A stretch of 64,000 nucleotides of DNA from sequence record MZ311865.1; one strand, written 5' to 3'. Below are positions 15,307-19,078 of the stretch, in pieces. This DNA comes from Escherichia phage vB_EcoM_LNA2. Within the stretch, counting starts at the first letter, position 1; each line of letters begins with the position of its first letter. Below the pieces are notes generated by a model. The model made no database searches. It saw only the letters and a program-made list of their open reading frames with translations, and had not been told where the DNA came from. Position numbers and translations under genes: made by a program.

Positions 15307-15612
15307 TTATTTTCCTCGACATTCTTTAATGAAATTTTCTAGATTGGTAGATTCAATAGCTTTTTTACGAGCTTCTGCGTGTTCTTCTTCGGACAATTTA
15401 CGTTTATAATTGACCCAGACATTATGGTCGAAACCAGTCGTGGCATATAATATCAAAGCTCCGACGAATAATAAAAACGGTGATAAAAATATACAACCAG
15501 GAACACCATCCATATCGTAAGCCTTTTGTAATACTGCAACAGAAAGAGTTACGTAAAAAGGTGATGCAAGTATTGTTAAAAGACCAATTCGGTTGGTTTC
15601 TGTTAATTTCAT
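15307..15612 (-). CDS. small membrane protein with C-terminal ENFIKECR motif (101 aa)
   Basis: Two hydrophobic helices; tail ...LENFIKECRGK; early promoter at 15639-15668. Confidence 0.55.
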   Translation of the reverse strand: MKLTETNRIGLLTILASPFYVTLSVAVLQKAYDMDGVPGCIFLSPFLLFVGALILYATTGFDHNVWVNYKRKLSEEEHAEARKKAIESTNLENFIKECRGK

Positions 15613-15680: not shown

Positions 15681-16637
15681 TTATTTGAAAGGTTTTACCA
15701 TATGGAAATTTTGTTTGAAACGTTTTACGTAATCGTCGTGTCCTAAGCTTTGGTACATACTTACTACTTTGCTATAATTTTCCCAAGCGAACTCACGGAA
15801 CCAACCGGAGGTGATGCTTGTGCAGACTTTTTCTAATGCCATCATAAAACTATCACGCGGATGGATTTTAAAGTTGTTAGGAATCTGAGAACGTTCTAAT
15901 GCTAGTACACATGATTCTTCGTATACACCTGCCAATTTGACCATTTCTGGTAACGATTCGAACTTCTCGCGTGAGGTCATGACTTCAGAACCGTCTTTCA
16001 TGTAAAACGTATAAGCCGGACGGTCTGTTAGTGCAATGGCTTCATGAATAGTATCATGGTCATATGTATAGATGTCATCTTTAAAGAACGCACTTTTAGA
16101 AGTGTCAAGAACCGGGTGAGCATAGTTCAAAGTTTCTTTCTGGCGTTTCAACATAATTTCAGTAAGTTCATCGTTCAGTGTAACACCTTTACCACGAAGA
16201 TACTGAATATGGTTCATAGTCTTTAAAAAGAATGGATTATTTTTCTTGAAACGATGAGACATCTTAATTGCAAGACATATCTCAGGAGTTGCCCAGTAAA
16301 ACCCAGTCAAACGGTCTTTAGTCAAATTTTTCTTGGCGTATTTTAAAAGGTCATAAGAAGATGTGAAATCTTCAGGAGTGAGTTCACCGACTAATTCACG
16401 GACATTAGTGATTGCCGGAACAATATATGCTTCAAAATGAGTTTCACGTCCATTATGGAAGCATTTGAAAACTTGGACATCAGGGTTATCTTGGTGAACA
16501 TATACACCCATCATTTGATTTTTGAATGCATTCCAAGAACCTTGGTCCGCAATAAAGTCCCAATCGCTATTTTTGATAGCGCTAGAATCAATAAGACCAT
16601 GATAGTGAAGTGCACGAGAACCAATAACTAACATCAT
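15681..16637 (-). CDS. hypothetical protein (318 aa) with N-terminal NTase-like GS...D.D motif
   Basis: N-terminus MMLVIGSRALHYHGLIDSSAIKNSDWDF resembles the Pol-beta-type nucleotidyltransferase signature; weak, pattern-only. Confidence 0.55.
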   Translation of the reverse strand: MMLVIGSRALHYHGLIDSSAIKNSDWDFIADQGSWNAFKNQMMGVYVHQDNPDVQVFKCFHNGRETHFEAYIVPAITNVRELVGELTPEDFTSSYDLLKYAKKNLTKDRLTGFYWATPEICLAIKMSHRFKKNNPFFLKTMNHIQYLRGKGVTLNDELTEIMLKRQKETLNYAHPVLDTSKSAFFKDDIYTYDHDTIHEAIALTDRPAYTFYMKDGSEVMTSREKFESLPEMVKLAGVYEESCVLALERSQIPNNFKIHPRDSFMMALEKVCTSITSGWFREFAWENYSKVVSMYQSLGHDDYVKRFKQNFHMVKPFK

Positions 16638-16665: not shown

Positions 16666-16917
16666 TTAAATTTCACGACATGCGATATTATATTCATCCC
16701 AGAGGTCATCATGTGAAGCCTCTACCAATGGAACGATTGTACCGTTTATGTCTTCATTATAAGGGCAAATTGTACAGTGCGCATCTTCGAATCGGATGCC
16801 TTTGTGTTCAGATTTTTTATAACGCATATCGAATATCTTTGCAAACTTTTCACGAGTAATAGTTTTAGCAACTACTTCGGTTCCAATACTTTCGTAATAA
16901 ATCATTGTGGACTCCAT
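16666..16917 (-). CDS. hypothetical protein (83 aa)
   Basis: ORF track; early promoter at 16934-16963. Confidence 0.45.
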   Translation of the reverse strand: MESTMIYYESIGTEVVAKTITREKFAKIFDMRYKKSEHKGIRFEDAHCTICPYNEDINGTIVPLVEASHDDLWDEYNIACREI

Positions 16918-16933
16918 TTAATTTGATAGGACT

Positions 16934-16963
16934 ACTATAACATAGTCCTATCTTATTGTAAAC
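16934..16963 (-). promoter_or_regulatory. T4-type early promoter with palindrome
   Basis: GTTTAC, 18 bp, TATAGT inside the ataggactactataacatagtcctat palindrome. Confidence 0.6.
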
Positions 16964-16967
16964 TGTT

Positions 16968-17165
16968 TTAGCAAGAATAACTAGACGATACCCAGCCTTG
17001 AACAGTAATGCTATTATTAGATAATGAGATCGCGTCCTGGAGATTCAGACCTGCGTTATCTTCAATCCATAATGTAACTTCTTCGCGTTCTTCTGTTGCA
17101 ATTTGGAACAGGTTTTCTAGAGCAGCTACTGCGGTACGTACAGCACAATCTAATTCACGAGACAT
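16968..17165 (-). CDS. small protein of the GW-x-SSS-xx-C C-terminal family (65 aa)
   Basis: C-terminus QGWVSSSYSC; one of three tandem paralogues. Confidence 0.5.
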   Translation of the reverse strand: MSRELDCAVRTAVAALENLFQIATEEREEVTLWIEDNAGLNLQDAISLSNNSITVQGWVSSSYSC

Positions 17166-17174
17166 ATGGTTTCC

Positions 17175-17447
17175 TTAGCAAGTGTGAGAAGATGCAACCC
17201 AACCACCAGTTTCGAGGCTCAGGTTATAGTCGTATTGGTAAACGTCGGCCCATTCAGCATAGCCGTTTTTTGTACAACGTTCAAGATCGGCTTTAAGATG
17301 TCCTGGCGAATGATAGGTTCCACCCATACCATAAGCTGGATACAAGTCGAATGTTGTGTTTTGTTTATCAGCAATTTCTTTGGCAGCCTCAATAGCTGCA
17401 TAGATTTTTGCTACAGCTTCAGCCAGCTCGGTTTGTTCTTTAGACAT
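17175..17447 (-). CDS. small protein of the GW-x-SSS-xx-C C-terminal family (90 aa)
   Basis: C-terminus GGWVASSHTC; GGAA RBS for the next gene follows the stop. Confidence 0.5.
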   Translation of the reverse strand: MSKEQTELAEAVAKIYAAIEAAKEIADKQNTTFDLYPAYGMGGTYHSPGHLKADLERCTKNGYAEWADVYQYDYNLSLETGGWVASSHTC

Positions 17448-17456
17448 AATGATTCC

Positions 17457-17762
17457 TTAGCACAACGCAGAAGACGAAATCCAAGCACCTTCAGTAATAA
17501 CGTAACCATTACCTTCACGCTTAACATCGCCACCATTATTTTCAATTTCGTTTTTCATCCACTGGGATACGATTTCACCTTTAGGATAATAAGTACGACC
17601 GCTACCATAATCACCTACAGAAAACGATACGGCATATTGGTCTGCGATCTTTGTTGCTTCTTCTTCGATACGTTCAGCTTGATTCAGAAGTTTATAAATT
17701 GCATCTGAAGCGGATTTGGCATCATTAAACTCTGGTACTTTAATTTCAATAATCTTACTCAT
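17457..17762 (-). CDS. small protein of the GW-x-SSS-xx-C C-terminal family (101 aa)
   Basis: C-terminus GAWISSSALC. Confidence 0.5.
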   Translation of the reverse strand: MSKIIEIKVPEFNDAKSASDAIYKLLNQAERIEEEATKIADQYAVSFSVGDYGSGRTYYPKGEIVSQWMKNEIENNGGDVKREGNGYVITEGAWISSSALC

Positions 17763-18118
17763 TTTCTACATTCCTTAATAAAGTTTTCGATTGTTTCATT
17801 TTCACGTCTAGCTAGGAGTTCATTATAACTAATCATTTGAGAAGCGTAAACCTTTTTATTTTTCTTGTTATGGTTTATAAAATCGTAGTAAAAATAGACT
17901 ACAGTACAAAATGATGCGATGGATGCAAAGGCTTGGGTATACCGTAAGTCCTGCCATTGGTCTGTGAATCCACCAGTGTTCCCTATAAATCCTAACACAA
18001 CGCCGTCAATAAGAAATCCAATTAATCCAAAGGCAAATCCCATGCCAATACTCATAATAAAAATTAGAATGTTCTCACCAAGAGAAGGCCATACGGTTAA
18101 GAGTTGAGGCTTTTGCAT
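17759..18118 (-). CDS. small membrane protein with C-terminal ENFIKECR motif (119 aa)
   Basis: Hydrophobic N-terminal half (ILIFIMSIGMGFAFGLIGFLIDGVVLGFIG); tail ...IENFIKECRK. Confidence 0.5.
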   Translation of the reverse strand: MQKPQLLTVWPSLGENILIFIMSIGMGFAFGLIGFLIDGVVLGFIGNTGGFTDQWQDLRYTQAFASIASFCTVVYFYYDFINHNKKNKKVYASQMISYNELLARRENETIENFIKECRK

Positions 18119-18522
18119 CTTATTTCCTTAACGAATTCCATAGCTTCTTCATATTCGTACTTTTTAACAGCTTCATCATACTGAGCTTGGGCTTTTGCGC
18201 ACTGGACTTTCCACTCGCGAACTCGAGCTCTGTGATGACGGCCTTGGTGCCAATATCCTGCCCAATTAATAGGCATTAATAAAAACGGTACAATAAGTGG
18301 TGCGACGAACATTAATGAAAACGCTGCATCAGACGATATAACTTTATTGGAATCTAAAATAGCTCCTATAATCATAAAGATTAAAAATGCTAAAGCTAAA
18401 ATAGGGCCAAATAGTACTTCGTTTGGGATTAATTTACGTTTGTATTCGTATGCCCAGGGCTTAATTGGCATGTATAGGGTTGGCTTTGACATATTCTCTA
18501 CATTCCATAATAAATTGCTCAA
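18097..18522 (-). CDS. membrane protein (141 aa), start uncertain
   Basis: Hydrophobic segments (FGPILALAFLIFMIIGAIL, AAFSLMFVAPLIVPFLL); tail ...EFVKEIRCK is a variant of the family motif; overlaps the upstream ORF so the true start is probably an internal Met. Confidence 0.45.
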   Translation of the reverse strand: MSNLLWNVENMSKPTLYMPIKPWAYEYKRKLIPNEVLFGPILALAFLIFMIIGAILDSNKVISSDAAFSLMFVAPLIVPFLLMPINWAGYWHQGRHHRARVREWKVQCAKAQAQYDEAVKKYEYEEAMEFVKEIRCKSLNS

Positions 18523-19078
18523 GGATTAAATTGTTAGTGAAATTAGGACTAACAACCATGGTTTCATAAAGCGCATCAATAGCACTTAAAGCATCAACTC
18601 TTTTAAGCAAAGGCTTGCCTTCATACATAGTTTCAGAATCGACGATTAAAGTGAAGTAGTATTTTTTATTATTGACCAGAACTTCTGTATCAATATAAAA
18701 CATGTTAGACCTTAAAAGCTTGTCTCTAAAGCCTACGTAATCATCTGAACGTTCACTGATGTATTCCCATTCAGTGTTTAAACAACAAACAGACCACGTA
18801 GGAGCAACGAAATCAGTGAATCTAATATCATGGTCTGCAACTAGTTTAGCAATAGCTCCGATATCATGAATCATAATACCTGGGGCTAATAAAGATTTTC
18901 GGTGATTTGCATATTCAGTTGTCTCATAAGAAGACGACCAGTACCATTTACGTCCAGTTGCAACATATCGTAATGAATCAACTAAAGACGTAGGTGGATT
19001 TACCTTATTTCGGAACTCTTCGAACATTGAGTCAATATCATTATTTTGGTTTCGCATGTTAACTCCTTTATTATCCAA
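18461..19078 (-). CDS. hypothetical protein (205 aa) ending in EQFIMECR-like motif
   Basis: ORF track; C-terminal ...LEQFIMECREYVKANPIHAN. Confidence 0.5.
   Translation of the reverse strand: MDNKGVNMRNQNNDIDSMFEEFRNKVNPPTSLVDSLRYVATGRKWYWSSSYETTEYANHRKSLLAPGIMIHDIGAIAKLVADHDIRFTDFVAPTWSVCCLNTEWEYISERSDDYVGFRDKLLRSNMFYIDTEVLVNNKKYYFTLIVDSETMYEGKPLLKRVDALSAIDALYETMVVSPNFTNNLILEQFIMECREYVKANPIHAN

Follow-up and report, generated by a model that had tools for sequence, protein, structure and literature searches.

Organization of the small-gene array

The window, that is, the whole stretch of 64,000 nucleotides from Escherichia phage vB_EcoM_LNA2 (MZ311865.1) analysed here, carried three consecutive small genes on the minus strand, which were transcribed in the order 101, 90 and 65 aa and all started with ATG (Table 1). 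Judged from related records, the array lay close to the lysozyme gene and the tRNA cluster, in a variable region flanked by the e.2-like and e.3-like genes, and the 3-kb stretch around it was 97-98% identical to many RB69/JS09-like T4-type genomes (genus Mosigvirus). The start of the 101-aa gene shared an ATGA overlap with the upstream e.3-like gene. Both internal junctions consisted of TAA, 9 nt (GGAA...) and ATG, and were spelled TGC TAA GGAATCATT ATG and TGC TAA GGAAACCAT ATG.

The initial annotation of this DNA had described three consecutive genes with the tails given in Table 1, and the ORF list and the sequence agreed exactly with its coordinates and sizes. Its remark that codon usage differs among the copies was also borne out: since the tail codons were different, the tail was conserved at the protein level. 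The claim that each stop is directly followed by a GGAA ribosome-binding site held for the two internal junctions but not after the 65-aa gene, where a hairpin and a promoter-like site were found. What had been observed was thus sound, but it did not include the minus strand, the YGMGGTYYP motif or the N-terminal helix, nor the size of the family, its spread among phages and a partner gene 331 nt downstream.

Table 1. Features of the array, the partner enzyme gene and the flanking region
Feature	Position	Strand	Description
Flanking ORFs with C-terminal motif F-[IV]-[KM]-E-[CI]-R	15307-15612; 17759-18118; 18097-18522; 18461-19078	-	RB69ORF133c-type protein, e.3-like and e.4-like membrane proteins, e.5-like protein
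Partner enzyme gene	15681..16637	-	318 aa; Pfam DUF7277 (N-terminal) and DUF7275 (C-terminal)
83-aa ORF, phrog_3723	16666..16917	-	Between array and enzyme gene; seen only in T4-type (Tevenvirinae) relatives
Hairpin overlapping early-promoter-like TTTACA-17-TATAGT	16925-16952 (hairpin); 16962-16934 (promoter-like)	-	Just after the 65-aa gene
Paralogue 3, RB69ORF136c-type	16968..17165	-	65 aa; phrog_4882 E 1.1e-36; family HMM E 2.5e-11; helix and tail QGWVSSSYSC-COOH kept, YGMGG motif lost
Paralogue 2, unnamed in related records	17175..17447	-	90 aa; phrog_899 E 3.5e-19; family HMM E 8.3e-24; YGMGGTY motif, tail GGWVASSHTC-COOH
Paralogue 1, RB69ORF139c-type	17457..17762	-	101 aa; phrog_899 E 3.5e-22; family HMM E 4e-20; long N-terminal helix, YGSGRTYYP hairpin, tail GAWISSSALC-COOH
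Promoter-like TTTACG-17-TATAAT	17822..17850	-	Inside the e.3-like gene, upstream of the array; consensus match

All genes of the module had the same direction and belonged to the early/middle region. A terminator was annotated in a related record at the same place as the hairpin, and, as far as the consensus matches indicate, the hairpin and the overlapping promoter-like site probably end or attenuate the array transcript and restart transcription for the 83-aa and enzyme genes. At the equivalent of the other promoter-like site, upstream of the array, a T4 middle-promoter-like site was annotated in phage SA79RD. The 83-aa ORF possessed an invariant Cys48 and P-Y-N-E-D, and occupied the same position in Mosig-, Dhaka- and Karam-type phages. 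BLAST chaining had hinted that this ORF is a degenerate fourth copy of the small gene, but hhalign against the family gave a probability of 0.3%, and this reading was rejected.

Another C-terminal motif, F-[IV]-[KM]-E-[CI]-R, was shared by four flanking ORFs (ends include ...ENFIKECRGK, ...ENFIKECRK, ...EFVKEIRCKS and ...QFIMECREYV), which were the only ORFs matching it in the window; it also ended the e.5-like and e.3-like proteins of a Dhakavirus (L003). In unrelated phages, RNA-repair or tRNA-related genes were seen repeatedly near the module, as individual sightings (L004-L007, L012, L017, L023, L026; L046; L052; L059; L043/L051). They included a P-loop polynucleotide-kinase-like gene on 355-371-kb contigs, Pnkp in Salmonella 7t3, an RNA ligase near the enzyme locus of Streptomyces Annadreamy, a PTH2 peptidyl-tRNA hydrolase in L059, and tRNA clusters near the module of the window and in Gordonia Smoothie. 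Ser/Thr phosphatase and SIR2 genes were found near the module of phAPEC8-type phages.

Paralogy and family membership

Pairwise BLASTP gave E = 6e-6 for the 90-aa and 101-aa proteins, 2e-4 for the 65-aa and 90-aa proteins and 3e-3 for the 65-aa and 101-aa proteins, a weak but significant similarity by which the three can be regarded as old paralogues. The 90-aa and 101-aa proteins were assigned to PHROG 899 and the 65-aa protein to PHROG 4882, both of them 'unknown function'. Over the window, the family HMM matched exactly the three proteins of the array, and a loose tail expression run on all ORFs of the window returned these three together with two short ORFs (36 and 72 aa) of non-coding appearance.

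A profile search of 1.84 billion representative proteins identified 587 clusters (50% identity) at E<=1e-3, nearly all of 60-140 aa and with the profile match extending to the protein end. Longer members had only uninformative N-terminal extensions, and no fusion to an informative domain was seen among them. A subfamily of 74-76 aa ending in W-x-P-S-S-C, which had no member in the window, consisted of true relatives (hhalign probability 90.7%). Loss of the motif in orthologues from related phages had been named beforehand as the finding that would speak against the shared signature; in fact the tail was kept in orthologues of other genera and in hundreds of distant relatives.

The earlier statement that no named family has this signature was confirmed: no significant match to the small proteins was obtained in Pfam, NCBIfam, PADLOC, PDB or the literature, and only the PHROG entries of 'unknown function' were hit. 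Accessions, DUF names, PHROG ids and motif strings led to no papers or curated names on the small family, its tail or its linkage to the enzyme. The family profile had no match at E<=10 among PDB chain sequences, a set which may lack MenA1. The Pfam matches of the 101-aa protein to XkdF peptidase (17.4 bits) and E217 gp32 (16 bits) were below the cut-offs and absent in the paralogues, and were rejected. The label 'inhibitor of prohead protease', borne by a homologue in Escherichia phage vB_EcoM_ESCO10 (L003, OM386655.1), was discarded as well, with T4 Inh being unrelated (hhalign probability 0.65%). The product names in this record were implausible for the gene sizes and followed the T4 gene order: a 117-aa membrane protein was called 'head outer capsid protein', and other family members 'helicase' and 'group I intron endonuclease'. 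The names appear to be shifted relative to the genes, apparently an artefact of annotation that could mislead database searches.

The family could be defined by a tail W-x-[SAP]-S-[ST]-x(0-2)-C that ends the chain or is followed by no more than 3 residues, in an acidic protein of about 60-140 aa whose gene lies within about 2 kb of a DUF7275 gene. All three proteins of the window have these properties, and the name Cys-tailed NTase-associated small proteins is proposed.

Conserved tail, second motif and predicted structure

Cys was the last residue in 135 of the 145 best-scoring family members. In these Cys-ending proteins Trp at position -7 and Ser at -4 were present without exception (135/135 each), Ser at -3 was present in 133/135, and position -5 was S, A or P; the other 10 of the best 145 (about 7%) had 1-3 residues beyond the Cys. 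Two Ser, the Cys and one Trp stayed fixed while the overall identity within the family was about 22-60%. A second, central motif resembling Y-G-M-G-G-T-Y-Y-P was found in 133 of the best 145 members, the median length and pI of which were 86 aa and 4.56. One Dhakavirus array with five members ended in ...AWVSSSEMC, ...GWVSSSSEC, ...SWVSSSYEC, ...FWFTSSMSC and ...IWYPSSC. In addition, extra internal W-x-[SAP]-S units (for example ...RWESSSEGWESSSEGWVSSSSQC) were observed 31 times against 1.8 expected from shuffling, an enrichment of about 17-fold.

The tail was missing from the RB69 reference ORF139c (P0002; 71 aa, ending ...SQWYEK), and in mar005P1 one homologue of the 90-aa protein (P0017) had 75 aa, an out-of-frame end and no tail. 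Either frameshifts or errors of sequencing account for these copies, or the phage can do without single paralogues.

The AlphaFold model of the 101-aa protein had a pLDDT of 92.6. In this monomer the tail was placed within the fold as a strand (93-96) and a helix (97-100) with pLDDT of about 90 and not as a free peptide, so the conservation of the tail could be partly structural if the model is right. The family can be described as small acidic cytoplasmic proteins composed of an N-terminal helix and a small beta-sheet, usually with a YGMGGTYYP hairpin, and a near-invariant tail. A metagenomic protein of 2289 aa (P0023) gave 17 matches to the family profile, all limited to profile positions 32-53, the Y-G-x-G-x-T-Y-Y hairpin region; the sequence suggests that the YGMGG-type hairpin may also serve as a repeat unit in this unrelated giant protein.

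Distribution of the family

No relative was found in 185,579 bacterial and archaeal species genomes scanned for the YGMGGTYY pattern, and the same kind of scan gave 39 loci on viral contigs, many of them 90-390 kb; since both scans used the YGMGGTYY-bearing subset, members without the exact motif were under-sampled. On this basis of YGMGGTYY-bearing members, the family was essentially restricted to phages. It occurred in T4-like, phAPEC8-like, Pseudomonas, Xanthomonas, Acinetobacter and jumbo phages, with 1-8 small genes per single enzyme gene. The largest array was that of L059 (GCA_040384425.1, contig JAWVGW010010837.1, 2588-4739), where eight consecutive genes had W..S[ST]..C-type ends and were followed by a DUF7275 gene that was apparently split or shortened (ORFs of 169 and 138 aa).

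Linkage of the array to a nucleotidyltransferase gene

When same-strand neighbours were clustered across the loci, exactly one recurred everywhere, the homologue of the 318-aa DUF7277 and DUF7275 protein. Anchored on the small proteins, all viral contigs counted (35/35, taking only loci with >=1.6 kb beyond the array) carried the enzyme in the same orientation, separated from the array by 9-1170 nt. These contigs represented 26 enzyme lineages at 70% identity from phages of 90 kb to 390 kb, and the other neighbours were not conserved across the lineages.

Anchored on the enzyme, family genes were found within about 2 kb in phAPEC8, PHB09 (Pseudomonas), Acinetobacter Berthold, phiWec186 and 7t3 (Salmonella jumbo), and in the metagenome contigs L054, L057 and L059, where arrays of 2, 3 and 8 members were followed by the DUF7275 gene. 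The order was inverted in Xanthomonas BUDD and Stenotrophomonas IME-SM1, with the small genes downstream of the enzyme, again within about 2 kb. Only 5 records of the genome collection contained the enzyme, all of them MAG contigs, and all 5 had small-family genes just upstream. In total, the loci anchored on close enzyme homologues were linked in 13/13 cases (7 phage records, the own relative of the window phage and 5 MAG contigs). For the distant, N-terminally shortened homologues of Streptomyces Annadreamy, Gordonia Smoothie, Mycobacterium WXIN and Vibrio VH7D no small partners were detectable, and these enzymes were devoid of Cys272 and most of the KVCTSITSGWFRE (SITSGWFRE) segment.

On the JGI contig Ga0572173_00420401 (L055, 94-1352), the family member P0089 lay directly downstream of a true RlaP (PF10127) gene and overlapped its stop, a second, unrelated NTase family for RNA ends adjoining a Cys-tailed protein; this contig is only 1.5 kb long, and a DUF7275 gene may lie beyond its end.

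The partner enzyme had a Pol-beta-type nucleotidyltransferase (NTase) fold, with invariant G6-S7, D25-x-D27, E69 and K125; the hG[GS] and [DE]x[DE] motifs and the downstream catalytic Lys of the MenT/AbiEii fold were all present. H128, R165, H174, D193-H194-D195, H198, E240-E241, E248-R249 and C272 were also invariant. The C-terminal domain was helical and highly conserved (YDHDTIHEA, GVYEExCVLALER, KVCTSITSGWFRE). The enzyme was well conserved (40-75% identity), and its homologues numbered more than 2,200, all of them 'hypothetical'. The nearest structural relatives were the MenT/AbiEii tRNA-nucleotidyltransferase toxins and the small-molecule adenylyltransferases (ANT/Lnu). The enzyme did not belong to PF08843/DUF1814, as Pfam returned only DUF7275, DUF7277 and noise at E<=1, and its profile found no MenT among PDB sequences.

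Possible role of the tail

There is little doubt that the small family is real and functionally coupled to the DUF7277-DUF7275 enzyme as a two-part phage module. We infer that the small proteins cooperate with the enzyme and that the tail is the element which the enzyme engages. The tail had been suggested earlier as a shared interaction or modification site, and this would fit the linkage to an enzyme of NTase fold. Gene linkage alone does not discriminate among substrate, inhibitor and adaptor.

The small proteins are tentatively regarded as dedicated partners of the enzyme, most likely as its acceptor substrates, engaged through the tail. Array and enzyme would be expressed early in infection, and the enzyme would recognise the conserved tail with the Trp as anchor. 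The tail would then enter the cleft between the NTase and helical domains, where the thiol of the cysteine or either near-invariant serine would act as nucleophile and be nucleotidylylated. The fast-diverging bodies, present in 1 to 8 copies per phage, might then act on different host targets.

This reading is favoured because, apart from a single aromatic anchor, all invariant residues are nucleophiles, because the W-x-S-S unit is repeated, and because the diverging copies of an array share a single enzyme. The internal W-x-[SAP]-S units look as a repeated recognition or acceptor unit would be expected to look, and one enzyme per 1-8 small genes resembles the layout of a substrate family and its modifying enzyme. 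NTase-fold enzymes that nucleotidylylate small protein partners are known from GlnD/PII and MntA/HepT. Several findings speak against acceptor substrates. Among the nearest structural relatives, MenT, like the analogous RlaP family, uses the RNA 3'-OH and ANT/Lnu use small molecules, and none uses proteins. The tail geometry is not rigid, with residues after the Cys in about 7% of members and W-x-x-S-S-C in one subfamily. In T4-type phages a hairpin and a promoter separate the array from the enzyme gene, and conservation of a tail that forms part of the predicted fold may be partly structural.

It is possible, though doubtful, that the module is a phage protein-modification system, in which a MenT-like NTase nucleotidylylates Ser (or the terminal Cys thiol) in a shared 'tail tag' of diversifying effectors and so arms or regulates them against host targets, for example tRNA-directed or nucleotide-based defences.

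The main rival to an acceptor substrate, judged rather unlikely on the whole, is that the small proteins are antitoxin-like or pseudo-substrate regulators, which block or time the RNA-binding cleft of a MenT-like enzyme whose true substrate is an RNA 3' end, e.g. of tRNA. MenT toxins put nucleotides on tRNA 3' ends, and MenT1 is blocked by MenA1, a helical antitoxin of 68 aa encoded upstream (PMC10435456). Such inhibition agrees with the fold neighbours of the enzyme, with the position of the small genes upstream of it in nearly all lineages and with the 9-nt spacers within the array, and the long conserved N-terminal helix and the acidity (median pI 4.56) are compatible with nucleic-acid mimicry. 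One inhibitor would be enough, however, yet up to 8 diverged copies occur per array. In an interface used for binding alone, an invariant Ser-Ser-Cys would be unusual, and the C-terminus of MenA1 is dispensable. Moreover, the module belongs to lytic phages and was absent from the bacterial genomes scanned, unlike toxin-antitoxin systems.

It is unlikely that the small proteins are independent effectors (nucleic-acid mimics, anti-defence proteins or nucleotide 'sponges') that are co-inherited with the enzyme or bind its nucleotide product; as 'sponges' they would bind nucleotides by means of the Gly-rich YGMGGTYY loop together with the aromatic/hydroxyl tail. They are indeed encoded by small, acidic, early-region accessory genes in a hyperplastic region, known phage counter-defence genes show similar variation in size and copy number, and in both motifs Gly, Ser, Thr, Tyr and Trp are abundant, as in phosphate- or base-binding sites. 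However, the subfamilies of 65 aa and 74 aa have no Gly-rich loop and still possess the tail and the linkage. The adjacency also persists across 26 enzyme lineages and in inverted order while all other neighbours change, which is difficult to account for unless the two are coupled directly in function.

Specificity adaptors seem improbable. The tail and helix would dock on the C-terminal domain of the enzyme, and the variable bodies would recruit host RNAs or proteins for nucleotidylylation. This could account for invariant docking elements, divergent bodies and a variable copy number with a single enzyme, and enzyme segment 272-286 was conserved only where small genes were linked; but there is no precedent among MenT/ANT-type enzymes, and a docking motif need not consist of Ser and Cys or occupy the chain end. 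An equally improbable reading is a purely structural tail, in which the Trp is buried, a turn caps the small fold and the terminal Cys is incidental. The high-confidence strand and short helix of residues 93-100 in the AlphaFold model agree with it. Protein cores, however, tolerate conservative substitution, while here S(-4) and C(0) were kept in 135/135 and S(-3) in 133/135 at about 25% overall identity; the W-x-[SAP]-S unit was repeated in linkers predicted to be variable and acidic, and the Cys was the chain end in 93% of cases.

RiPP-like (AviCys) or ubiquitin-like C-terminal chemistry (adenylation of the terminal carboxylate as in ThiS/MoaD/MccA) can practically be dismissed. Only the S(-3)-x-x-C(0) spacing, which equals that of the epidermin AviCys ring, and the layout of tandem precursor-like genes adjoining one enzyme are shared. 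The members are folded proteins of 60-140 aa (pLDDT 92.6 for the model), neither a LanD/HFCD decarboxylase nor a dehydratase nor an E1-like enzyme was seen nearby, and the partner enzyme has a Pol-beta and not an E1-like (Rossmann) fold. The end is Cys and not Gly-Gly or Asn, 10/145 members (7%) continue beyond the Cys, and SSC without spacer occurs in one subfamily.

Significance of the module

Most early accessory genes of large lytic phages are still 'hypothetical', and the tail signature ties hundreds of such orphans to one enzyme; a nameless gene cluster thereby becomes a two-component system open to direct testing. On the bacterial side, the MenT/AbiEii structural class is concerned with tRNA poisoning and abortive infection. 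Should the small proteins prove to be substrates, protein nucleotidylylation would gain a further branch of enzymes and a place in phage biology. If the tail is indeed the tag of a protein-modification system, the MenT-like branch would receive its first member directed at proteins, and a new enzyme-plus-substrate-array module would be present across T4-like, rV5-like, Otagovirus and jumbo phages. Should the small proteins instead be inhibitors, the module would represent a relative of toxin-antitoxin systems that is carried by phages and has several antidotes. In both cases, a usable annotation rule is provided for >500 protein clusters.

Comparison with known systems

The enzyme class and the idea of a small NTase partner are already known; the small family, its tail, the array organization and the phage context are new. 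The proteins of the window are members of PHROG 899/4882 (small proteins), PHROG 2141 (enzyme) and Pfam DUF7277/DUF7275, with E values of 1e-19 to 1e-150. These PHROG and DUF clusters are unannotated and record neither the tail motif nor the gene linkage, and the PHROG clusters do not join the 65-aa and 74-aa subfamilies with the rest of the small family.

Compared with MenAT1 of M. tuberculosis and AbiEii-DUF1814, the enzyme of the window has a larger, very conserved C-terminal domain (DUF7275) and no PF08843 match. Its partners form arrays of 1-8 and possess a beta-sheet, YGMGGTYYP and the Ser-Ser-Cys tail, all of which are absent from MenA1. MenAT1 resides in bacterial chromosomes, whereas the module of the window resides in lytic phages.

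RlaP adds 1-2 NMP to damaged RNA 3' ends (PMC12776372). This RNA-ligase-associated family (PF10127; T4 NrdC.11) has the same plan as the window enzyme, an N-terminal NTase and a helical C-terminal domain with a cleft between them, and is likewise common in large phages; no small Cys-tailed partners are described for it (PMC12776372). The reading of the enzyme as RlaP was rejected, as there was no PF10127 match and hhalign of the true RlaP of L055 against the enzyme profile gave a probability of 0.2%.

GlnD/PII and MntA/HepT offer an analogy only. Their partners have no homology to the small family, the acceptor there is Tyr, and the window module has no HEPN or ACT domain and no confirmed HD domain. 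The concept is nevertheless alike, as a Pol-beta-fold enzyme acts on hydroxyl groups of small partners, and PII has paralogues (GlnB/GlnK), as has the small family described here.
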